Shown: positions 5,454 through 57,493 of the stretch, in pieces
Layout: each line of letters opens with the position of its first letter
Position numbering within the stretch: the first letter of the stretch is position 1
Origin: Dehalococcoidia bacterium
GTDB taxonomy: Bacteria; Chloroflexota; Dehalococcoidia; Lucifugimonadales; UBA2962
Direction of reading: 5' to 3'
Assembly (NCBI GenBank): GCA_965116605.1
Contig: OZ220697.1
Span: forward strand, 10,956-74,955
Length of the DNA stretch: 64,000 bases
The notes under the pieces: model-generated
Seen by the model: the letters and a program-made list of their open reading frames with translations, nothing else
Databases searched by the model: none
What the model was told of the DNA's origin: nothing
Translations under genes and position numbers: made by a program

Positions 5454-6353
5454 GTGGCAGAGGGTAAAGGCGACGGGCCCGGAGAGCAGCAGTTGAGGCC
5501 CGCCGTGCCCACCCGCGCTCTGATCTGGATCGTCGGTGCGGTGGTGCTGGCCGCCCTGATAGCGGCCCTTGCGAGACAGGCTGGTTTGCTGGACAGGTAC
5601 TTAATCTTCTTCCCTGAAAGCGAGGTGCTCGCCACTCCGGGCGACTACGGCCTGGCCTATGAGGACGTCTGGCTGGAGACCCGTGACGGCGTTCGGCTCC
5701 ATGGGTGGATCGTGCGGCCCGCCGCCTCGCCCGGCGGGTCGACCCGCGTGGTGCTCTGGCTGCACGGCAACTCCGGCAATATCGGGCACAGGGCGGCGGC
5801 CGTGGCTGCGATGGCCCGGGGAATCGGGGTCCCGGTGATGATCATCGACTACAGGGGCTACGGGCAAAGCGAGGGTTCGCCGGCCGAAGAGGGGCTGTAC
5901 CGTGACGCCGAGGCGGCGTACGACTATCTGGCGGCCCGCCCGGAGTTCTCCGGTTCGTCGATCGTCGCGTTCGGCCGCTCGCTTGGCGCAGCTGTTGCGG
6001 TAGAGCTGGCGATCCGCCGGCAGGTCGAGGCGCTGGTTCTGGAGTCGCCGTTCACCTCCGTGTCGGAGATGGCGCGACTCAGGAATCGATTCCTTCCGTC
6101 AGGGCTGCTTGTCCGCGCGCGATTCGACACCCTTGCCAAGATGCCCGAGGTGCGAGCACCGGTCCTGGTCTTTCACGGCACGGACGATGAGATCGTGCCC
6201 GTCGATATGGGCCGCCGGGTCCACGAGGCGGCTCCTGGACGAAAGCGCCTGTACCTGCTGGAAGGCGCAATGCACAATGATCCCCACCACGAGCCCGGGG
6301 CACCGTACTACTCGGTGCTCAGCGATTTCCTGGAAGGGGGGTCCGGCGGGTAG
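5454..6353 (+). CDS. Membrane-anchored alpha/beta hydrolase (ABHD13/BEM46-like)
   Basis: N-terminal hydrophobic helix, HGNSGN, DYRGYG, GRSLG nucleophile, HGTDDEIVP, HND. Confidence 0.88.
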   Translation: MAEGKGDGPGEQQLRPAVPTRALIWIVGAVVLAALIAALARQAGLLDRYLIFFPESEVLATPGDYGLAYEDVWLETRDGVRLHGWIVRPAASPGGSTRVVLWLHGNSGNIGHRAAAVAAMARGIGVPVMIIDYRGYGQSEGSPAEEGLYRDAEAAYDYLAARPEFSGSSIVAFGRSLGAAVAVELAIRRQVEALVLESPFTSVSEMARLRNRFLPSGLLVRARFDTLAKMPEVRAPVLVFHGTDDEIVPVDMGRRVHEAAPGRKRLYLLEGAMHNDPHHEPGAPYYSVLSDFLEGGSGG

Positions 6354-6355
6354 TT

Positions 6356-6634
6356 CTAGGAGTCGGACGCGGGGTGCGCGTCCCCCTGCGCTGCGGCGAG
6401 CTGCTTCATGATGCGCGACTTGCGGCGGCTGGCGTTACCCCGGTGCAGGGCACCCTTCTTGGCCGCCCTGTCGAGGGCCATGACAGCACTGCGCACCTGG
6501 CTCTCGGCCGCAGGCATGTCGCCATCGGCGATCGCGGCTCGTGCCTTGGCGATGTGAGTCTTGGCTCGGCTTCGCAGCGGTCCGGTCCTGGCCTGTCGGC
6601 GGGCCGATGTTCTATGTGATTTGGCGCTGGGCAA
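6356..6634 (-). CDS. rpsT: 30S ribosomal protein S20
   Basis: Basic 92 aa with LDRAAKKGALHRGNASRRKSR. Confidence 0.93.
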   Translation of the reverse strand: MPSAKSHRTSARRQARTGPLRSRAKTHIAKARAAIADGDMPAAESQVRSAVMALDRAAKKGALHRGNASRRKSRIMKQLAAAQGDAHPASDS

Positions 6635-49430: not shown

Positions 49431-50516
49431 ATGGCAAATCAGGTTAGCGGAGTGATAGCCATGTCGGCCGGCGCCCCGGTCACGCTCGAGGACATCGTGG
49501 TGCCCGACCCGGGCCCCGGGGAGGCGCTGGTCAGGGTGCAGGCGTGCGGGGTATGCCACACCGATCTTCACTACCGGCAGGGAGCCATAACCGATGAGTT
49601 CCCGTTCCTGCTTGGGCATGAGGCCGCCGGGGTCGTGCAGGAGGTCGGAGACGACGTGACCGGCGTTGCGCCGGGGGATTTCGTGATCATCGCCTGGCGC
49701 GCTCCCTGCGGGGATTGCCGGTCCTGCCTGAGAGGCAGGCCCTGGTACTGCTTCGCTTCGATGAACGCCGCCCAGAAGATGACTCTCGCCGACGGGCGTC
49801 CATTGTCACCGGCCCTCGGGATCGGCGCCTTCACCGAGCTTACCCTGGTCCACGCCGGTCAGGCGGTGAAGGTTGATCCGGCGGCGTCGGCTGCGGCAGC
49901 CGGGCTAATAGGGTGCGGTGTGATGGCCGGTCTGGGAGCCGCGGTCAACACAGGAGGCGTGACGCGGGGTGACTCGGTCGCGGTCTTTGGCTGCGGGGGC
50001 GTCGGCGACGCGGCGATAGCGGGGGCGCGCCTTGCCGGCGCGCACACCATAGTCGCCGTGGACATAGACGACAGGAAACTCGAGTGGGCAAAGGGATTTG
50101 GAGCCACGCATACGATCAATTCCACAGAGACCGACCCGGTGGAGGCCATACGCGACCTGACCGGCGGCAACGGAGTGGACGTGGCGATCGAGGCGGTCGG
50201 CAACCCGGTGACATACGAGCAGGCGTTCCTTTCGCGGGACCACGCGGGAACCGTGGTGCTCGTCGGCGTCCCGAGCCCGGACATGAGGATCGACCTGCCG
50301 CTGCTGGAGGTGTTCGGAAGGGGAGGGTCCCTTAAGTCATCCTGGTATGGGGACTGCCTGCCGACGAGAGATTTCCCCCTGTTTGTAGACCTGTATATGC
50401 AGGGGCGTCTCGACCTGGACGGATTCGTCTCCGAGACGATCGCGCTGGGAGATGTCGAGGAGGCGTTTGCCAAGATGGAGCGCGGAGAGGTACTGCGGTC
50501 CGTCGTTCTCATGTGA
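49431..50516 (+). CDS. mscR: S-(hydroxymethyl)mycothiol dehydrogenase-like Zn dehydrogenase
   Basis: [59 protein letters not shown]. Confidence 0.88.
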
Positions 50517-51081
50517 CCTCTCGCAGATCCAGGGATCACAGAAGCCCGCTGTGAGCACAGAGGACCACTCGTCCAGCTGCGGGCGCAGCCCGCCCTGTGC
50601 GCACCGCGCGCAAGGAGGGCGGCTCGCCCTAGGGATCTGATCCACCGGCGGCCGGGTCACGCTGAGGGGTCCCTCCCGAGGCAGCAACGGGATAGCTCAG
50701 GCTCCCGAAGTCGCAACCGACGTCCGGGGCCTTTGCTAAGTGTGTCCGGCGTGGAGGGATCCTGTGCGCTCGGCCGCCCACCGCTCCAATCGTCTTTAGG
50801 GAGACGATCAGGCTGCGCCGAGCGCACCCCCGCAGGTCATCAACATGATCGTGGTGTTCATGTCCATAGCTACGGTGACCGCGACCGTCTTCCTCTGCCG
50901 CCGACATGCTGAAGGCGGGGTGGGACGGTTCCCTGCGCCAGCACCCTATCTGGCGGCGCAGGGAACATGCGGGGTCTATTGCTTTCGGCCTGAGGAAGCC
51001 CAGGACGAATCCTGGCGCCTACGGGAGGTTCGTGAGACCGCAGATGTCTTACGAACCGCTTAGCCCCGGTGGCCTCCAGGT

Positions 51082-51179
51082 CCAGATCTACAGGAAACTG
51101 CCAGCGCCCGGTCGAACCTGCGGCCTGGTGTTTCGGCCGCAAGGTCTAACGGGCGCTTCGACTGGCAGGTTAGATCTGG
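51082..51179. other. Long nested imperfect hairpin (about 98 nt)
   Basis: CCAGATCTA/TAGATCTGG, CTGCCAG/CTGGCAG, CGCCCG/CGGGCG, ACCT/AGGT and TGCGGCC/GGCCGCA nest in order. Confidence 0.7.
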
Positions 51180-51230
51180 CGAAGAAAAGTCGGCTCCTCC
51201 AGGTACACCGCCCGGAGGGGCCGCCGATAT

Positions 51231-51443
51231 CTAATGTCCGTGGTGTTCGTGGGTGTCGCACTCGTGCTGGTCGTGCACGTGCCCGGCCTCATCGCCGTGG
51301 TGTTCGTGGTCGTCGCACTCATGCTCGGCGTGCTCGGCGTGATGCTCATGGGTGTCGCACTCGTGCTGGTCGTGCACGTGCCCGGCCTCATCGCCGTGAT
51401 GCTCATGGGTGTCGCACTCGTGCTGGTCGTGTTCGTGGGCCAT
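51231..51443 (-). CDS. 70-aa His/Glu/Asp/Cys repeat protein, putative metal storage or chaperone
   Basis: SD GGAGGAG then MAHEHDQHECDTHEHH...; 24 His, 4 Cys, four HECD(T/D)HEHH units; in-frame repeats with synonymous variation. Confidence 0.8.
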   Translation of the reverse strand: MAHEHDQHECDTHEHHGDEAGHVHDQHECDTHEHHAEHAEHECDDHEHHGDEAGHVHDQHECDTHEHHGH

Positions 51444-51653
51444 ATGCTCCTCCATCAAAGCTCTTTTTGCTGCACGTTCCTACGGCTAGTGTCCTCGTCA
51501 CTCTCCATACTTGCACACGATCAGTTTGCCAGACAAGCCCCACGTCAATTTCCTGTTGTTTGACTCAGCAAGCTGGCCAAAAGCGGGAGGTGGAACCGGT
51601 CGCCTTTAGCCCCGGAGACGGGGACTGTACCTTCGCTTGAAAAGGCATAGTAT

Positions 51654-51778
51654 TGCGACTTATGAGAGCCAGTATCAGGATGTTCAGGCCGAGATAATGA
51701 TTCCTCTTGTTGCCCGTGTTCGTTGCCGTGATTATGCTCCTCAGTGACGCGCTTGTAGGATCACGATATCGAGTCGCA
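51654..51778. promoter_or_regulatory. Zur/Fur-like 7-1-7 boxes between the His-rich gene and sthA
   Basis: TGAGAGC-C-AGTATCA (51663-51677) and CGATATC-G-AGTCGCA (51764-51778) resemble the boxes upstream of znuA. Confidence 0.55.
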
Positions 51779-51999
51779 ATAAGCGTTTAGTTGGAGCAGA
51801 CAATTGGACAGCGGGGCTTACCGATCAGCGTAGGCGCGCGGAGGATTGCTGCTAGATCTTGAGTAGGGCTCGGCCGTAGCGGCCTCGACGGAGACCTGAA
51901 TCCGTCGCATGGGCTGCTGATGCGGCTTGACGCGACTCGCCCGCCCAGTACATGATCAGCCCGCGTGTCATAGACATCTTCAGGGCGGGAGCATCTGCG

Positions 52000-53403
52000 G
52001 TGACCAGCTACGACTATGACATGGTTGTGATCGGATCCGGTCCGGCCGGACAGATGGCTGCCATTCAGGCATCAAGATTCGGCGGGCGCGTGGCCGTGAT
52101 CGAGAAACTCGGGGAAGTTGGCGGCGTGAGCGTCAACACCGGAACCGCTAGCAAGACCCTGCGTGAGGCCGTTCTGCACTTTACCGGCCACCGTGAGCGC
52201 AGCGTCTACGGCAGGTCGTACTCGGTAAAGCGGAACGTCACTATGGCCGACCTCATGGAGAGGGCCCGGCACGTGATGCGGCAGGAGGTGGATATCCTGC
52301 GTGGGCGCCTCGCCGCAAGCAGAGTGGAGATGATAAACGCCGAGGCCTCGTTCGTGGACCGCCACACCATTCGGCTCCGCGCCGACGGTGGAAGAATGAG
52401 CCGTACCATCAATGCCGATAAGGCGGTCATAGCGGTCGGGGCGTTTTCCACCAGGCCACCCGTAGTGCATGCGGACGGGAGGCTCATATTTGTAAGCGAC
52501 GACGTCCTGAACCTGCCCGAGCTACCTCGTAGGCTGACCATCGTGGGGGCCGGATCGATCGGCCTGGAGTACTGTGGCACCTTTGCAACCCTGGGGGTGC
52601 GAGTCACGCTGGTGGATAAGGAGGCGCGGCTGTTGCCGTTCGCCGACAGAGAGATCAGCGACACTCTCGCCTACCACCTTCGCCAGACGGGAGTGACACT
52701 TCGCCTGGGCGAAGAGGTTTTTGATATCGAGTATTTGAGGGATGAACTCGGCGATAAGGTGAGGGTGCTTCTCGATAGCGGAAAGCAGATAGTGAGTGAT
52801 GCCGTAATGTACTGCGTCGGCAGGACGGGAGCCACCGGGTCGCTGGGGCTCGAGGCCGTGGGCATAACTCCCGATGAACGGGGCCGCCTGAGCGTCGACG
52901 ATCACTACCAGACCAACGTAGAGGGCGTATATGCGGTCGGCGGGGTCATCGGGTTTCCGGACCTTGCCTCGACCTCCAAGCTCCAGGGTCGTCTGGCCGC
53001 CTGCCACGCGTTTGGAGTCTCTACGAACGGGTTCCCCGATCTCTACCCGTACACGGTCAAGACCGTGCCCGAGGTGGCGATGGTCGGGAAGACGGAGGAC
53101 CAGCTCACCGGCGAGGGTGTTCCCTACGAGGTGGGCAAGGCGATGTACAGGGAAACCATCAGCAGCGTCATCCAGGGCGACGACGTCGGCCTCCTTAAGC
53201 TGCTGTTCGATCCCGATACCCGCAGGCTGCTGGGAGTCCACACGATCGGGGACGGCGCGGCCGAACTGATACACGTCGGACAGGCCGTAATCGCCCACGG
53301 CGGTACGATCGACTATTTCCTGGAGTCCGTGATCGGCTGCCCTACGCTGGTCGAGTGCTATGCGGACGCCGCCATGAACGGGATGAGCCGGCTCACGTCG
53401 TAG
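52000..53403 (+). CDS. sthA: Soluble pyridine nucleotide transhydrogenase-like flavoprotein (divergent)
   Basis: IGSGPAG, GT.SKTLREA, GAGSIGLEY, VIGFP.LASTS..QGR, AAELIHVGQAV. Confidence 0.85.
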   Translation: MTSYDYDMVVIGSGPAGQMAAIQASRFGGRVAVIEKLGEVGGVSVNTGTASKTLREAVLHFTGHRERSVYGRSYSVKRNVTMADLMERARHVMRQEVDILRGRLAASRVEMINAEASFVDRHTIRLRADGGRMSRTINADKAVIAVGAFSTRPPVVHADGRLIFVSDDVLNLPELPRRLTIVGAGSIGLEYCGTFATLGVRVTLVDKEARLLPFADREISDTLAYHLRQTGVTLRLGEEVFDIEYLRDELGDKVRVLLDSGKQIVSDAVMYCVGRTGATGSLGLEAVGITPDERGRLSVDDHYQTNVEGVYAVGGVIGFPDLASTSKLQGRLAACHAFGVSTNGFPDLYPYTVKTVPEVAMVGKTEDQLTGEGVPYEVGKAMYRETISSVIQGDDVGLLKLLFDPDTRRLLGVHTIGDGAAELIHVGQAVIAHGGTIDYFLESVIGCPTLVECYADAAMNGMSRLTS

Positions 53404-53674
53404 GCCAGACCGCATCGGATGCGGGAACTAATGGGCCTTGGTAGGAAGGGACGGTGGAAACCGCCGGCGCGCCGGCAATCTGGCATTCGGATGAGACCCG
53501 GCCATCTCTACCGGGGCCCGTCTGGAGAGACCTCGCATCATACCGGTGCCGGGGGCCGCTCCGGCCAGTACGTTTGCTCACTCGGTGAGTCGGAGATCGG
53601 ACCCGCACGTTTGCGCCGGCATAGATCGCTTGGTCAGTGGCCGCGATTCCCGTGGCAAAGGCGCGGCGTCGGGT

Positions 53675-53704
53675 TTGACGCGCAAAACAGATCACCGATA
53701 GGAT
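53675..53704 (+). promoter_or_regulatory. Sigma70-type promoter for the Fur-family gene
   Basis: TTGACG-N18-TAGGAT. Confidence 0.55.
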
Positions 53705-53748
53705 GTGGGCTCCCTGCATTCAGCGCTGAGGGTGTCCTTAACCAGGTC

Positions 53749-54186
53749 ATGACAACGCCGCCCACCGCCTCCCGCCCAGATATGATGGCCGTCCTTGAGG
53801 ATCGCGGTTATAGGTCCACCGCCCCCAGGAGAGCGATCATCCGCATTCTGGAGGGCAAGGAGGAGGGCTTTACCGCGGAGGAGATCGGCAGTGAACTGCC
53901 CGGGGTGGGCAGGGCGACGATCTTCCGGACCATAAAGCTGCTCATGGAGGTCGGCGTCATATGCAGGCTGAACCTCCTTGACGGCGCTCCAAAGTACAGC
54001 CTGTCGCGCATTGAGCACCATCACCACACGGTATGCGTCAGGTGCGGCATCGTAGGGGAGTTTCGGGCCACTACGGTTGAGCGCTTGATGCGGAGCCTGG
54101 GCAGCGAAATCCCCGGCGAAATAATGGGTCACCGGATCGAGCTCTACGTCACCTGTGACCGCTGCGTCGAGGGCGAGGGCAACTAG
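53749..54186 (+). CDS. zur: Fur-family regulator, probably Zur
   Basis: GYRSTAPRRAI, GRATIFRT, HHHHTVCVRCG, CDRC; directly upstream of znuACB. Confidence 0.85.
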   Translation: MTTPPTASRPDMMAVLEDRGYRSTAPRRAIIRILEGKEEGFTAEEIGSELPGVGRATIFRTIKLLMEVGVICRLNLLDGAPKYSLSRIEHHHHTVCVRCGIVGEFRATTVERLMRSLGSEIPGEIMGHRIELYVTCDRCVEGEGN

Positions 54187-54228
54187 AGACAGATCAAGGC
54201 CATTTTAGGCGTTTGCGTTGCCCCGCAT

Positions 54229-54302
54229 TGAGACCTATTATCATCGATTACACACCGACATTTTGTAGATTTCGTGTTGTCCTATATTGAGACAAATTAT
54301 CA
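54229..54302 (+). promoter_or_regulatory. Two Zur-like boxes upstream of znuA
   Basis: TGAGACC-T-ATTATCA (54229-54243) and TGAGACA-A-ATTATCA (54288-54302) in an AT-rich spacer. Confidence 0.72.
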
Positions 54303-54395
54303 AAGGACTGGATGCGCAAGTGACCCCTTCTGGGGCAAGCATATGGATCGCCAATCGGGGGTTTCTGGCTAATGATGACGTCTAAACACAGGTAC

Positions 54396-55808
54396 ATGAT
54401 TTCGCGTGCGGCCAAGAGCTCCTTTTTCGCGCTTGCTGTCGTCTTGGCGGCGGCCTTTGGGGCGTGCTCGGATGACCGCGGCACGACTGTGCAGACTCCG
54501 CAGCCGCAGGTTGAACCTACTGCTGCCACGGAGGAAGTAACTGAACCTGAGGGCCGCGACCTGCTCGTCGTAACGACCACCAACATCGTGGCCGACTGGG
54601 TTGAGAACATAGCCAGCGACAATGTCGAGGTCTTCAGCCTGGTGCCGGTAGGTGCCGACCCCCACGCATATCAGCCTGGTGCCAGGGACGTTGCGAGGGT
54701 CGCCGACGCCGACCTGGTGCTCAGCATCGGGCTCGGCCTAGAAGAGTCATGGCTTCGGGATCTCTTGCAGAACGCCGCGCGCGACCCGTCGGCCATAGTC
54801 GAGCTGGGCGAAATGATAGACCCGATCGAGTTTGGCGAAACTCACATCGAGGAGGTCGAACTACTGGAGGAGATCGCCCACGTCGTCGAGGAGGTGGAGG
54901 GTGGTGAAATCGGACCCGAGGAAGCACTGGACGAGGTTCGGGAACTGCTCGAGGCCGTCGCAGAGGGCGAGGACCACGGGGATGAAGAGGCGGAGGATGA
55001 AGACCACATGGATGAAGAGGCGGGGGATGAAGACCACGGGGATGTAGATGAAGACGAGGGTGAGGACCACGCGGGTGAAGATGAGGATGAGGGCGAGGAC
55101 CACGGGGATGAAGAGGAAGAGGGAGAACACGGGGACGAAGAACACGGCGAAGAGTTGTTCGCGATGGTCAAGGCGGTGCTCGACGATTTCGATGAAGGCC
55201 ATATCGGGGCTGGCGAGGCCGTAGAGGCTTTTGAGGCCCTTTCGCACGAGGGCGAAGAAGAGCACGAGGGCCACGGCCACGGCATCCATGATCCGCACTT
55301 TTGGTTCGATCCGATTCGCGTAAGGCTCGCGGTCGATGACATAGCCGAACGCCTGTCCGTCCTCGACCCGGCCCGGCGCGATACCTACCTTGCCAATGCC
55401 TCGGCATATGGCGTCGAGCTCGACGAACTGCACACCTGGACCGAGCAGCAGTTGGCCGCGGTACCGCAGGCCAACAGGCTGCTGGTGACCTCGCACGACA
55501 GCCTCGGCTATTTCGCGAATCTCTATGATTTCGAGGTGGTCGGGGTGATCCTGTCGATCACGACGGAGGTTGAGCCGTCTCCAGAGGATCTTGCCGATCT
55601 GGTCGATGAGGTCAGGGAGTATCAGGTTCCGGCGGTGTTCGGCGAGACGACGGTGAGCGATCGCCTGGCCCAGGCGGTTGCCACGGAATCCGGCGCGGAA
55701 TTCGTGAGGCTGTACTCTGGGTCTCTTGGAGGCGACGGTAGCGGAGCGGCCACGTATATCGGGATGGTGCGTACCAACGTCGAGCGCATAGCCGAGGCCC
55801 TGAACTGA
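54396..55808 (+). CDS. znuA: Zn ABC transporter substrate-binding lipoprotein with a very long acidic/His insert
   Basis: Lipobox FGAC, DPHAYQP, GLGLE, DPHFW, TSHDSLGYFA, VFGE; upstream ATGs at 54372/54375 also possible. Confidence 0.92.
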   Translation: MISRAAKSSFFALAVVLAAAFGACSDDRGTTVQTPQPQVEPTAATEEVTEPEGRDLLVVTTTNIVADWVENIASDNVEVFSLVPVGADPHAYQPGARDVARVADADLVLSIGLGLEESWLRDLLQNAARDPSAIVELGEMIDPIEFGETHIEEVELLEEIAHVVEEVEGGEIGPEEALDEVRELLEAVAEGEDHGDEEAEDEDHMDEEAGDEDHGDVDEDEGEDHAGEDEDEGEDHGDEEEEGEHGDEEHGEELFAMVKAVLDDFDEGHIGAGEAVEAFEALSHEGEEEHEGHGHGIHDPHFWFDPIRVRLAVDDIAERLSVLDPARRDTYLANASAYGVELDELHTWTEQQLAAVPQANRLLVTSHDSLGYFANLYDFEVVGVILSITTEVEPSPEDLADLVDEVREYQVPAVFGETTVSDRLAQAVATESGAEFVRLYSGSLGGDGSGAATYIGMVRTNVERIAEALN

Positions 55809-55911
55809 GGACGCGCCAGCTGACCGGATCGTGCGGGACGGACCGTATGGCTATCGCCGATCGAGGGGCGAGAGTGCGCCGGTGAGTAGCTGACTTAATC
55901 GGACGCCGAAG

Positions 55912-56658
55912 ATGGACTCCACGCTGGGCATATTTGTCAAGGACGTTACCGTCGAGCGCCGCGGCTTTAAGGCCCTGACTGACATAACCTTCGAGGTGGG
56001 GCAGGGAACCCTGATGGGCGTCTTGGGCCCCAATGGTGCCGGCAAAAGCACCCTCTTCGACGCGATTGCGGGCATCCTGCCCATAGCGAGCGGAACCGTG
56101 GACCTGCGCGGCGCGGATGCCCGCAACGGGTCGCTGGCCTACGTACCACAGCGAGACAGCATCAACTGGCGCTTTCCGGCCACTATTATGGACGTCGTGA
56201 TGATGGGGCGATCCGGCAATGTCGGTTGGTTTCGTCAGCCGAGCAGGAGTGACCGGGAGAAGGTGCGGGAATGTCTGGATCGAGTTGGACTGTGGGAACG
56301 GCGCTCGTCCCTGATGACGGAGCTGTCCGGCGGGCAGCGCCAGCGCGTGTTCATCGCGCGAGCTCTGGCCCAGGAGGCGAGCATCGTCCTGCTGGATGAG
56401 GCCTTCAGCGGAGTGGATGTCGGAGCCCAGGAAGGCATCATCGAGGTTCTCCAGTCACTTCGCGACGATGGCATGATAGTTCTGCTGGCCACGCATGACC
56501 TTACGAATTTGGCCGAGCGCTTCGACCAGGTGCTGTGCATCAATCGTCACGTCTGCGCGTGCGGTACACCCGAAGAGGCGTTCACGCCGAAGGTACTTGA
56601 GGAGCTCTACGGCTCGCACGGCCTGGACTTTGTGCTAAATGGGCCGACAACGCTGTAG
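55912..56658 (+). CDS. znuC: Metal ABC transporter ATP-binding protein
   Basis: GPNGAGKST, AYVPQR, LSGGQRQRVFIARAL, DEAFSGVD. Confidence 0.92.
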   Translation: MDSTLGIFVKDVTVERRGFKALTDITFEVGQGTLMGVLGPNGAGKSTLFDAIAGILPIASGTVDLRGADARNGSLAYVPQRDSINWRFPATIMDVVMMGRSGNVGWFRQPSRSDREKVRECLDRVGLWERRSSLMTELSGGQRQRVFIARALAQEASIVLLDEAFSGVDVGAQEGIIEVLQSLRDDGMIVLLATHDLTNLAERFDQVLCINRHVCACGTPEEAFTPKVLEELYGSHGLDFVLNGPTTL

Positions 56659-56668
56659 GTAACGCGTA

Positions 56669-57493
56669 GTGGGGTTTCTGACCGAGCCCTTCCAGTACGG
56701 ATTCATGGTGCGGGCGCTTATCGTCTCCGTGCTCGTCGGCATCATGTGCCCGGTACTCGGCGCATACGTAATCACGAGAGGGCGTGCCTTCATGGGAGAC
56801 GCGCTCGCCCACTCCGTGCTGCCCGGCATGGTTGTCGCCTTCATGCTGGGCATCAGCCCGTTCTTTGCGGCTGTGCCCGCCGGGATAGCGATTGCCCTCT
56901 TGATGGGTTCGGTCAGCCGCCGCACGGGCATCAGCGAGGACACCTCGATCGGCATTATCTTCGCGGGCATGTTCGCACTGGGCCTTGTGATGCTGTCGGT
57001 GGCCACCTATGTCAATGTAAACATCGAGGACCTGCTCCTGGGGCAGGTCCTTGGAGTGTCGCGCAACGACGTATTCGTCTCGCTAGGGCTGACTGCACTG
57101 GTAGTTGTTGGGCTGTATGCGTTTCACCGTCAGCTCGTTTACACGACCTTCGACCCGGTGGGCGCTACGGTCGTAGGGATTCGGACGGGCGTCGTTGAGT
57201 ACGTGCTGCTCGCCCTGCTGGCGCTTGTCATCATCATCGGCATACAGGCCGCCGGCATCGTCCTGGTTATGGCGATGCTCATAACGCCGGCGGCGACCGG
57301 CTATCTCCTTGCTAAAAGGTTCGTCGGAGTCATGGTCATCGGCGCGCTGGTCGGTGCCATATCGGCGGTGGCCGGCCTGTACGTCTCTTTCCATGTAGAC
57401 CTGCCATCGGGTCCTGCGATGGCGCTGGTAGCCACACTGGTCTTCGGAGTGGTAGCCACTCTAAAGACCAGGTGGAACGTACGCAGGCTGTAA
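56669..57493 (+). CDS. znuB: Metal ABC transporter permease (ABC-3)
   Basis: MGDALAHSVLPG, EDTSIG, FDP, MLITPAA, PSGP. Confidence 0.92.
   Translation: MGFLTEPFQYGFMVRALIVSVLVGIMCPVLGAYVITRGRAFMGDALAHSVLPGMVVAFMLGISPFFAAVPAGIAIALLMGSVSRRTGISEDTSIGIIFAGMFALGLVMLSVATYVNVNIEDLLLGQVLGVSRNDVFVSLGLTALVVVGLYAFHRQLVYTTFDPVGATVVGIRTGVVEYVLLALLALVIIIGIQAAGIVLVMAMLITPAATGYLLAKRFVGVMVIGALVGAISAVAGLYVSFHVDLPSGPAMALVATLVFGVVATLKTRWNVRRL

Follow-up and report, generated by a model that had tools for sequence, protein, structure and literature searches.

A conserved gene for a His/Cys-repeat miniprotein, linked to CDF and Znu genes and most likely encoding a cytoplasmic zinc buffer or hand-off protein

The bacterial metallothioneins SmtA and BmtA hold a Zn4 cluster with about 9 Cys and 2 His in ~55 aa, and the Hpn and Hpn-like proteins of Helicobacter are very His-rich small cytoplasmic proteins with a few Cys, thought to be stores or buffers of divalent metals. 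To our knowledge, metallothioneins are rare in bacteria, and little is understood of how the labile zinc pool is held and routed between importers, exporters and client proteins. The logic that joins CopZ to CopA is so far known to us for copper only, and we know of no zinc chaperone described for a CDF pump.

Here, we analysed a 64-kb stretch of Dehalococcoidia DNA (the window) that encodes a miniprotein built from HECDxHEHH units (Table 1). Judging from its sequence and its relatives, this miniprotein most likely serves to buffer cytoplasmic zinc or to hand it on, and would represent a hitherto undescribed kind of protein.

Table 1. Features of the miniprotein locus and the neighbouring zur-znuACB locus in the window.
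Feature	Position	Strand	Basis
Remnant of ZitB-like CDF N-terminus (His-rich stretch, then DDLRGCARRSLIVSL)	50785..50898	-	tblastn
Miniprotein CDS, 70 aa + stop, four HECD(T/D)HEHH units, GDEAGHVHDQ or AEHAE linkers	51231..51443	-	translation, homologues, substitution pattern, tandem repeat
Shine-Dalgarno GGAGGAG, 3 nt 5' of the ATG (51443-51441)	51447..51453	-	sequence
Half-site-like TATTGCGACT, miniprotein-sthA intergenic region, 208 nt upstream of the ATG	51651..51660	+	inverted repeat, TATTGMGAC scan
Second, inverted TATTGCGACT, 329 nt upstream of the ATG	51772..51781	-	inverted repeat, TATTGMGAC scan
Fur-family regulator, presumed Zur; start inferred, mechanical ORF from 53419	53740..54186	+	PF01475
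znuA operator copy ATTGAGACCTATTATCA, inside 32-nt direct repeat	54227-54243	+	box pattern scan
znuA operator copy ATTGAGACAAATTATCA, inside 32-nt direct repeat	54286-54302	+	box pattern scan
znuA, long acidic/His-rich insert	54372-55808	+	PF01297 E 2e-77
znuC	55912-56658	+	metal ABC importer, 54372..57493
znuB	56669-57493	+	product matches ABC-3 (PF00950) genes in related loci

A conserved gene read in the His-rich frame

Translation confirmed the composition given in the preliminary description, a 70-aa product rich in His, Asp and Glu (24 His, 13 Glu, 10 Asp, 5 Ala, 5 Gly, 4 Cys, 3 Gln, 3 Thr, 2 Val and 1 Met) without a single Lys, Arg, Phe, Tyr or Trp. The four HECD(T/D)HEHH units are indeed present, starting at residues 8, 27, 41 and 60. 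The four Cys, at residues 10, 29, 43 and 62, had been called evenly spaced; their number and regularity stand, but a spacing of 19/14/19 is not strictly even. The longest His run is 2 and there is no CxxC. The computed mass is 8.2 kDa, with a pI of 5.2 and a net charge of about -23 at pH 7.5. The coding DNA is itself a 57-nt (19-aa) tandem repeat of 2.2 copies with 84% matches, and the gene has the strong Shine-Dalgarno sequence previously ascribed to it. Within the 64-kb window there is no second HECD-type ORF, and scans for sigma-70 promoters and terminators around the gene gave no result on the minus strand.

A homologue search, suggested in the preliminary description, did find relatives. 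Small homologues (n = 25 at E<=0.01, best 1e-16) all consist of HECDxHEHH units with a GDE(P/A)GHVHD linker. In contigs of species-representative genomes the pattern matched 526 times, and 285 of these loci were confirmed by tblastn. The best 80 of the 285, from Dehalococcoidia/SAR202 and Acidimicrobiia MAGs, were examined further and are referred to below as the best 80. The number of units is modular: among the best 80, 65 loci have 4 units, seven have 8 and four have 10, the rarer counts being 3 units (two loci), 6 (one) and 7 (one), and two-unit forms of 38-45 aa are found among database proteins. An alignment of 57 four-unit members has 37 invariant columns, among them all His, Glu, Cys and Asp positions of the unit cores. 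In 68 of the best 80, a start codon could be selected that is preceded at 4-16 nt by GGAGG or AGGAG, a count biased upward since starts were chosen by the best Shine-Dalgarno match.

The strand on which the gene is read was also considered, since the preliminary description had itself named an antisense hydrophobic ORF (51234-51563, plus strand) as the case that would overturn it. The antisense frame is open over 109 aa in the window, antisense ORFs are open in many loci, and the region is a DNA tandem repeat, so that a wrong frame or a non-coding repeat could be envisaged. An open antisense frame, however, follows automatically from the His/Asp/Glu codon usage, and the substitutions tell against both ideas. 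Over 405 same-length pairs, differences at sense codon positions 1, 2 and 3 number 2418, 2616 and 10712, being mostly at third positions; of the codon changes, 8179 are synonymous and 3995 non-synonymous when read in the sense frame, against 567 and 11607 when read antisense. The Shine-Dalgarno sequence and start are conserved for the His-rich frame, and the antisense product has no Pfam match. The antisense ORF shows no conservation; we reject it as the true gene on the substitution pattern, and we hold any such misreading to be exceedingly improbable. The miniprotein gene is real, conserved and under purifying selection in the His-rich frame; the loci are phylogenetically related, so that these counts exaggerate the number of independent events.

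No match to a known family was found for the product. The window miniprotein matches nothing in Pfam (E<=0.01) or NCBIfam, and the 57 family members gave a single Pfam match at E<=0.1, a chance hit to Antistasin (E 0.086). A sequence search of the PDB returned one chance match (E 1.1) and no relative, the ESM Atlas only unnamed clusters without a lead (best scores 0.77 and 0.75), and an Rfam scan of 50300-52100 two chance matches below threshold. A tblastn search of plasmids was without matches, a weak negative because the low-complexity filter was on. Four motif strings of the miniprotein were searched in the literature and occur in no paper. Broader literature searches gave only general papers on zinc, CDFs or metallothioneins, and no such protein is named in the passages of two reviews on His-rich proteins and metallothioneins, on storage (PMC6103462) or on Hpn (PMC11672702). 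As proposed earlier, the His/Cys repeat miniprotein is thus apparently undescribed.

A library of 1.84 billion proteins yielded only 29 representative matches. Pfam and NCBIfam both miss the miniprotein, and many gene callers have probably overlooked so small a protein of such composition. The metal-homeostasis annotations of SAR202/Dehalococcoidia and marine Acidimicrobiia therefore lack it.

Genomic partners and the state of the locus in the window

The best-conserved partner of the miniprotein gene is a ZitB-like CDF exporter. A CDF gene lies within 6 kb in 63 of the best 80 loci, mostly at 73-240 nt and in convergent orientation, and the closest called downstream ORF is a Cation_efflux (PF01545) gene in 56 of the best 80, of which 47 are convergent and nine co-directional. 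Within the same distance, a ZnuB-like gene is found in 24 of the best 80, and a Fur-family gene is near in 12. A CDF or Znu gene is nearby in 72 of these loci, and neither occurs within 6 kb in the remaining eight. Upstream neighbours are varied (MFS, M24 peptidase, aminotransferase, CoA-transferase, methyltransferase, ZnuB and others), so the pair of miniprotein and CDF persists through rearrangement, and does so in two phyla. The preliminary description had proposed a zinc homeostasis system formed with zur-znuACB. Its zinc side is borne out by zinc homeostasis neighbours in two phyla; zur-znuACB as the conserved partner is not, since that place belongs to the CDF.

The same repeat module is also found within exporters. 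Four of the six longer homologues (P0026-P0029, 405-448 aa, PF01545) are CDFs with four units at the N-terminus, and the loci L060 and L075 each encode a 408-aa CDF with a two-unit module at its N-terminus plus a separate four-unit gene. The database name of P0027 is "cation transporter". The tails of most neighbouring CDFs carry Cys-free HDHxGHD-type repeats, not the HECDxHEHH module. The transport-site HxxxD motifs of TM2 and TM5 are kept in all 46 aligned CDFs.

Since the module exists as a CDF N-terminal tail, the stand-alone gene might be regarded as an evolutionary by-product, namely a tail that has split off or is soon to fuse, or a leader-type ORF of little function. In nine of the 56 pairs the miniprotein gene does immediately precede the CDF in the same orientation, with a gap of only 12 nt in L054. 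Nevertheless, the convergent pairs, 47 of the 56, cannot be split genes or leaders, the stand-alone genes are under strong purifying selection and have their own Shine-Dalgarno sequence, and L060 and L075 keep both forms; the gene is also retained where the CDF has been deleted (see below). This explanation is already largely refuted by gene orientation, and we consider it very improbable. The same orientation means that gene order does not imply co-expression, most pairs not being operons.

The window is a case of such a deletion. Five locus CDFs searched against it by tblastn had their best matches (E 4e-5 to 2e-4) in a remnant of 114 nt, downstream of the miniprotein gene and on the same strand; the remainder of the gene is gone, and this search revealed no CDF elsewhere in the 64 kb. 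Among the closest relatives, L008 has N- and C-terminal CDF scraps side by side, and L056 has the synteny of the window with an intact CDF gene. The miniprotein is under purifying selection in the window and its three closest relatives despite the adjacent CDF deletion. Its function therefore cannot be strictly dependent on that neighbour.

The zur-znuACB locus does lie about 2.3 kb away, as previously stated, with the zur-like gene most likely starting at ~53740 and followed by znuA, znuC and znuB. Such proximity is common to the window and its closest relatives only (L005, L007, L008 and L056). In the Fur-family regulator, residues 129-243 of the long ORF match PF01475 (E 3e-21); its gene stands directly upstream of znuA, and its NCBIfam matches to Fur, PerR and Zur are all below cut-off. 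The top NCBIfam match of the znuA product is AztC (253 bits, also below cut-off).

The identity of the metal may be approached through these neighbours. Composition alone would equally suit Ni, Co, Cd or Cu, and a nickel/cobalt (or cadmium) store, comparable to Hpn and Hpn-like proteins or to the His-rich tails of HypB, SlyD and UreE, is conceivable: a His content of 34% together with scattered Cys and acidic residues resembles that of Ni-binding His-rich proteins, the DmeF model gives 104-116 bits on the neighbouring CDFs, and ZitB/CzcD-type CDFs transport Co and Cd too. We think this alternative to zinc improbable. On the same CDFs the ZitB model scores 240-274 bits (below its equivalog cut-off), 2-2.5 times the DmeF score, and MntE 67-80 bits. 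Urease, hydrogenase, CODH and Ni/Co-uptake genes are lacking among the nearest neighbours scanned (80 of 80 downstream and 60 of the 79 listed upstream, the other 19 being near-duplicates or already identified by tblastn). Moreover, the miniprotein gene is found repeatedly next to importers of the znuABC type, in which the binding protein carries a His/acid loop. A RiPP precursor was rejected as a candidate, there being no modifying enzymes among the neighbours.

Operator-like elements and regulation

Zur-like boxes had been reported upstream of the miniprotein gene, and this holds in part. The full box ATTGAGACNNATTATCA, allowing <=3 mismatches, matches the window only at znuA (54227 and 54286) and nowhere upstream of the miniprotein, whose upstream region harbors only two variant half-sites, the inverted TATTGCGACT pair resembling the left half of the znuA operator. 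The window has three TATTGMGAC matches against 0.35 expected, a number reached by 2 of 100 shuffles, and the copy at 51772-51781 is conserved as TATTGCGACT at the corresponding position in L007 and L008. Boxes equivalent to the znuA operators are found upstream of znuA in other loci.

Across the loci, 41 of the 94 sites of the related element ATTG[AC][GT]AC in 937 kb fall within the 500 nt upstream of miniprotein genes. This element precedes the miniprotein gene in 31 of the best 80 loci and the CDF gene in 14 of 56, versus five of 222 control windows. The longer GAGACTGAT is restricted to promoter regions in 9/9 occurrences, three each at miniprotein, znuA and CDF genes. No universal palindromic operator (5-mer arms, gaps 0-14) upstream of the miniprotein was common to >5 of 81 regions; the shared element behaves as half-sites in varied arrangements. 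In some Acidimicrobiia promoters (L035, L053, L071) it lies, in our reading, between -35-like and -10-like hexamers. According to passages of a review (PMC6103462), Zur boxes are palindromic, of the 7-1-7 or 9-1-9 type, and CDF genes can be activated by Zur acting at boxes of a similar kind; in the light of those passages, the element fixes no sign of regulation.

This material bears on a rival explanation, close to the view of the preliminary description, in which the miniprotein belongs to the Zur regulon and is made under zinc starvation. Zn-Zur would repress its gene along with znuABC, and the protein would serve in the cytoplasm as acceptor, distributor or reserve for imported zinc, with no functional tie to export. 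In about 13 of the best 80 loci, znuB directly precedes the miniprotein gene in the same orientation, 109-650 nt away (L010, L021, L023, L026, L039, L041, L042, L048, L064, L065, L068, L070, L078), and elements of the GAGACTGAT and ATTGAGAC types are common to miniprotein promoters and znuA operators. These loci and the repressor-type position of the element between the hexamers suggest co-repression with the importer and expression under zinc scarcity, which fits a hand-off to an exporter less well. In the window, the zur-znuACB locus 2.3 kb away, the two half-sites and the survival of the gene after CDF loss would also agree with a starvation role. On the contrary, among the six longer homologues the module is fused to CDF exporters only and never to importer components, a CDF neighbour is commoner than a Znu neighbour (63 versus 24 of the best 80), the same element stands upstream of CDF genes, and, given the activation of CDF genes by Zur in the review passages, it fixes no direction of control. 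We regard this explanation as rather unlikely.

Proposed function and comparison with described systems

The miniprotein gene is conserved and repeat-modular, is linked to CDF and Znu genes, occurs fused to CDFs and has a cis element in common with the promoters of both. With moderate confidence, we propose that its product buffers or relays Zn(II) as a disordered chain with several binding sites, and that it corresponds to a CDF N-terminal tail in free-standing form. A role in zinc buffering or hand-off appears most likely because the genes of its relatives adjoin, or are fused to, zinc export pumps. The protein would be cytoplasmic, intrinsically disordered and very acidic. Each 19-residue repeat would supply some six imidazoles from His, the thiolate of one invariant Cys and several carboxylates. 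From these ligands we infer that the 70-aa chain should take up several divalent ions, Zn(II) being the most probable metal and about 4-8 ions the likely load of a chain, and that it should adopt a fold only in the loaded state. AlphaFold2, run with 57 sequences, gave a pLDDT of 45 and a pTM of 0.11, a predicted disorder such as would be expected of a protein that folds only on metal. A complex prediction for the L035 CDF (residues 60-372) with its own miniprotein and 4 Zn scored 0.00, a result that speaks neither in favour of binding nor against it.

Such a protein would most likely buffer the labile cytoplasmic zinc pool and deliver zinc to the CDF pump on its cytoplasmic side, the free miniprotein doing in trans what the fused tails would do in cis, according to the logic of CopZ and the CopA N-terminal domain transposed to zinc. 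In the genome of the window, where the adjacent CDF is deleted, it may act as a buffer alone or serve a partner CDF encoded elsewhere. The operator-like element shared by miniprotein, znuA and CDF promoters makes control by the same zinc-responsive regulator probable, presumably the neighbouring Fur-family Zur. A bolder form of the proposal is only tentative: CDF exporters might have in this miniprotein their first dedicated zinc metallochaperone of the cytoplasm. As a disordered chain of His/Cys repeats homologous to the pump tail, it would carry Zn(II) from the cytosol, possibly directly from ZnuABC, to the transport or regulatory site of the CDF, and it would be controlled by the operator that importer and exporter also use.

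If this were true, the CopZ-CopA logic would extend to zinc export, and one regulator would set uptake, buffering and efflux together. The HECDxHEHH family offers a very small and concrete candidate, with natural fused and free forms, 2 to 10 repeats and cognate CDFs. Its nine-residue repeat (one Cys, four His, three carboxylates) is a compact motif that could serve in metal-binding tags or sensors.

The comparison with metallothioneins, already drawn in the preliminary description, is fair as a functional analogy and fails as a family assignment. The miniprotein shares with SmtA/BmtA (Metallothio_Pro) and MymT small size, low complexity, a context of metal-homeostasis genes and, as predictions for the miniprotein, metal-induced folding and the binding and buffering of several ions. 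Unlike them, it has 4 Cys versus 24 His in 70 aa, so that its ligands are not dominated by Cys, it consists of highly acidic repeats (about -23) in variable copy number, and it matches neither the Metallothio_Pro profile nor any other Pfam family. Hpn and Hpn-like proteins are likewise small and very His-rich with a few Cys, but the miniprotein lacks long His runs and has an ordered 9-residue motif with an invariant Cys flanked by Glu/Asp; its neighbours are zinc transporters, not urease or hydrogenase, and it occurs in other lineages.

The pair formed by CopZ/Atx1 and CopA is a functional analogue. In both cases the metal-binding domain at the cytoplasmic N-terminus of an exporter has a homologue in a small soluble protein encoded nearby, and fused and free forms coexist. 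CopZ, however, is a ferredoxin-like HMA domain with a CxxC, whereas the miniprotein is a predicted disordered repeat (pLDDT 45) with no HMA match in Pfam and no CxxC. CopA is a P1B ATPase, whereas the partner pump here is a CDF antiporter, with a putative transfer of metal to it. With the His-rich tails of ZitB/CzcD-type CDFs the likeness is one of sequence: the module HECDxHEHH-GDEPGHVHD-HECDxHEHH, in two or four units, forms the N-terminus of the CDFs of L060, L075 and P0026-P0029, and the stand-alone gene adjoins such CDFs in most loci. The miniprotein differs from these tails in being a separate 70-aa protein, with no intact CDF adjacent to it in the window. The family is marked by at least two HECDxHEHH units with short His/acid linkers, of which the window miniprotein has four, and by a ZitB-like CDF gene next to or fused with the module, of which the window holds the 114-nt remnant.

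The miniprotein family and its coding frame

The miniprotein gene comprises 70 codons and translates as MAHEHDQ-HECDTHEHH-GDEAGHVHDQ-HECDTHEHH-AEHAE-HECDDHEHH-GDEAGHVHDQ-HECDTHEHH-GH, a chain of 24 His, 13 Glu, 10 Asp and 4 Cys devoid of Lys, Arg and aromatic residues (8.2 kDa, pI 5.2, net charge about -23), with no evident signal peptide. GGAGGAG lies 3 nt ahead of the ATG, and the coding DNA forms a 57-nt tandem repeat (19 amino acids, one unit and linker; 84% matches). Translation thus reproduced the composition, units and Shine-Dalgarno sequence of the preliminary description, its "Zur-like boxes" excepted. The window miniprotein matched nothing in Pfam or NCBIfam, none of 57 family members matched Pfam, no relative was found in the PDB, Atlas gave no lead, and a literature search for four of its motif strings found them in no paper. 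AlphaFold2 predicted no structure from the 57-sequence alignment (pLDDT 45, pTM 0.11), as expected of a chain folding only around metal ions.

A word-seeded search recovered 25 small relatives (38-103 aa, best E 1e-16), none of them named and each built from the same unit and linker, and a profile search across 1.84 billion representative proteins gave 29 matches at E ≤ 1e-3, all small except one unrelated repeat protein. Scanning a single genome for each species yielded 526 pattern matches, 285 of them confirmed by tblastn; the best 80 (loci L001-L080) were examined, all from MAGs, with gene calls from a simple ORF/GC3 heuristic checked against Pfam and with locus counts inflated by shared ancestry. 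Sixty-two of these 80 belong to Dehalococcoidia, Chloroflexota or SAR202 MAGs, 13 to Acidimicrobiia (including three Candidatus Spongiisociaceae), and five carry no label beyond "bacterium". The window itself belongs to Dehalococcoidia; its closest counterpart among the 80, L008, has a LepA of 98% identity. Units number four in 65 of the best 80 loci, eight in 7, ten in 4, three in 2, and six and seven in 1 each, and two-unit proteins of 38-45 aa occur among the database matches, which makes HECDxHEHH-GDEPGHVHD-x-HECDxHEHH the basic module, tandemly duplicated. One locus, L010, carries two tandem four-unit genes (its positions 6001-6228 and ~6363-6600, forward strand).

In each of the best 80 loci the His-rich frame is short and uninterrupted, and a start codon preceded by GGAGG/AGGAG could be selected in 68, an upper estimate given the SD-guided choice. 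Among 57 distinct four-unit members, 37 alignment columns are invariant, and all H, E, C and D residues of the unit cores are among them. A hydrophobic antisense ORF had been named beforehand as the rival gene; its codon boundaries coincide with those of the sense ORF, which permits a codon-wise comparison of both frames. In 405 pairs of equal length, differences at sense codon positions 1/2/3 number 2418/2616/10712, and changed codons are 8179 synonymous vs 3995 non-synonymous in the sense frame, but 567 vs 11607 in the antisense frame; the pairs are mutually non-independent, and the direction of the signal is unambiguous. Window comparisons give 12/4 changed codons (synonymous/non-synonymous) with L005, 9/5 with L007 and 6/5 with L008. 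The substitution pattern, a decisive strand test, rules out the antisense ORF as the real gene and makes it a side effect of the His/Asp/Glu codons; that the region is non-coding or coded on the antisense strand is extremely improbable.

Linkage and fusion to CDF exporters

The nearest called downstream ORF is a Cation_efflux protein (PF01545) in 56 of the best 80 loci, in convergent (47) or co-directional (9) orientation, with gaps mostly of 73-240 nt. According to tblastn, 63 of the 80 hold a CDF within 6 kb, 24 a ZnuB-like permease, 16 ZnuC and 12 a Fur-family gene; a CDF or Znu gene is found in 72, both in 15, and neither in eight (L001-L003, L016, L036, L038, L074, L079). The other flank varies among these loci (MFS, M24 peptidase, aminotransferase, luciferase-like oxidoreductase, CoA-transferases, methyltransferase and more), and the miniprotein-CDF pair is therefore the item conserved through rearrangements, across two phyla. 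In L001-L003 and L016, seven- or eight-unit forms (129-147 aa, TTG start) adjoin an MMPL-family transporter and a DUF2207 membrane protein, which may represent a different partner.

The ZitB model gives the neighbouring CDFs their highest scores (240-274 bits, under its 408-bit equivalog cut-off), far exceeding those for DmeF, MntE or FieF. His/Asp at the TM2 and TM5 HxxxD positions, the transport-site pattern of Zn/Co/Cd CDFs, are kept in all 46 aligned sequences. A nickel or cobalt store, as an alternative function of the miniprotein, is unlikely.

Six matches fell among longer proteins: four are CDFs of 405-448 aa (PF01545) whose N-terminus carries four units, one bearing the source name "cation transporter", and the remaining two come from small genes whose ORFs were extended too far. 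In both L060 and L075, a two-unit module lies within the N-terminal tail of a 408-aa CDF, and each locus additionally carries a separate four-unit gene. No fusion to a non-CDF domain was seen among the six longer matches and the best 80 of 285 loci. Such restriction to CDFs suggests that zinc-type CDF exporters naturally bear the module as a cytoplasmic N-terminal domain, with the window gene as its free-standing form; that the miniprotein is a mere evolutionary by-product of tail fission or fusion seems very unlikely.

In the window, sthA is followed by the Fur-family gene, znuA, znuC and znuB (see table). The window ZnuA has an unusually long acidic/His-rich insert (residues ~150-290, with E/D runs and GEDHGDEE-type repeats), and the ZnuA of L065 (Acidimicrobiia) a still more regular repeat, EEDDDHA. 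The 714 nt between the miniprotein gene and the alcohol dehydrogenase hold no convincing gene. They contain a CDF remnant, the end of an N-terminal His-rich tail followed by ...DDLRGCARRSLIVSL..., the junction of tail and first helix (TM1). The same synteny is found in L056 (LepA, OsmC, bPH and Zn-ADH on one flank, Fur and Znu on the opposite flank), with an intact co-directional CDF at the exact place of the remnant, then the same Zn-ADH gene. L008 has N- and C-terminal CDF scraps side by side, indicating an internal deletion. The window lineage has therefore lost the central part of its CDF gene by deletion and retained the miniprotein.

Features of the miniprotein locus in the window
Feature	Position	Strand	Remarks
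Zn-dependent alcohol dehydrogenase	49431-50516	+	convergent to miniprotein gene and CDF remnant
Interval without convincing gene	50517-51230		
CDF remnant	50785-50898	-	sole window match of CDF queries, E 4e-5 to 2e-4 (window-sized search)
Miniprotein gene	51231-51443	-	
Antisense hydrophobic ORF	51234-51563	+	rejected
SthA-type transhydrogenase	51952-53403		upstream of and divergent from miniprotein gene; NF003585, 534 bits
Fur-family gene	53419-54186	+	mechanical ORF, 255 aa; Pfam domain covers only residues 129-243; true start probably ATG ~53740
znuA-promoter direct repeat, 32 nt	54212-54243 and 54271-54302	+	59 nt start to start
znuA	54372-55808	+	

Promoter elements and proposed function

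Both repeat copies at the window znuA end in ATTGAGACnnATTATCA, readable as a 7-1-7 box (TGAGACn-n-ATTATCA), and probably form a double Zur operator; comparable boxes precede znuA elsewhere, e.g., ATGAGACTGATTATCATTATC in Acidimicrobiia. As to the earlier claim of Zur-like boxes upstream of the window miniprotein gene, a full ATTGAGACnnATTATCA-type box was not found there; two inverted TATTGCGACT copies lie 208 and 329 nt upstream of its ATG. In 937 kb of loci, ATTG[AC][GT]AC occurs 94 times, 41 of them within 500 nt upstream of a miniprotein gene; with A also permitted at position six, it is present upstream of the miniprotein in 31/80 loci and of the CDF in 14/56, vs 5/222 control windows. 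The 9-mer GAGACTGAT occurs nine times in the 937 kb, always in promoter regions and in two phyla, upstream of the CDF (L004, L034, L037), the miniprotein gene (L035, L053, L071) or znuA (L064, L070, L078). No single palindrome common to all promoters was found. One group of Dehalococcoidia has three copies of the promoter element, which flank a -35-like TTGAC and extend into the -10 region. In L018, L035, L051, L053, L057 and L071, one to three copies of a TGCAAA-N9-TTTGCA palindrome, possibly the operator of a second regulator, closely precede the GAGACTGAT element, at ~110-190 nt from the miniprotein start.

We infer from these elements that miniprotein, CDF and znuA are under a common zinc-responsive regulator, most simply the Fur-family Zur. 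Zinc-loaded Zur is usually a repressor. In Streptomyces coelicolor and Xanthomonas, Zur is reported to activate CDF genes through boxes of a similar type (PMC6103462).

The miniprotein is real, conserved, repeat-modular and cytoplasmic; its gene is linked to those of ZitB-like exporters and in some cases fused with them, frequently lies near znuABC, and has a promoter element in common with these genes. We lean, by a modest preference, towards a multi-Zn(II) binder that would buffer labile zinc and hand it to the CDF, a task that the fused tails would perform in cis. Each chain, presumably disordered when empty, would bind several Zn(II) through His, the invariant Cys and carboxylates; His and Cys alone offer 28 ligands, or at most seven four-coordinate sites. 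The main rival, a Zur-repressed role in zinc starvation coupled to import, is a possible but distinctly less probable reading, favoured by the same-strand order znuB-miniprotein in ~13 of the best 80 of 285 loci and, as we read it, by the position of the element inside some core promoters. The buffering role in export and the starvation role in import are compatible with a single picture, a relay between importer and exporter.

Comparison with known systems

The miniprotein is not a member of the SmtA/BmtA group, with no profile match and only 4 Cys, nor is it an HMA chaperone, as it has neither the domain, CxxC nor the fold. By analogy, it would resemble metallothionein and Hpn in working as a small, low-complexity, multi-metal binder, and CopZ/CopA in its relation to the N-terminal domain of a pump. 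It fits best as a new sequence family of a known kind, the small cytoplasmic metal-binding proteins, whose unusual feature is a testable tie to CDF exporters.
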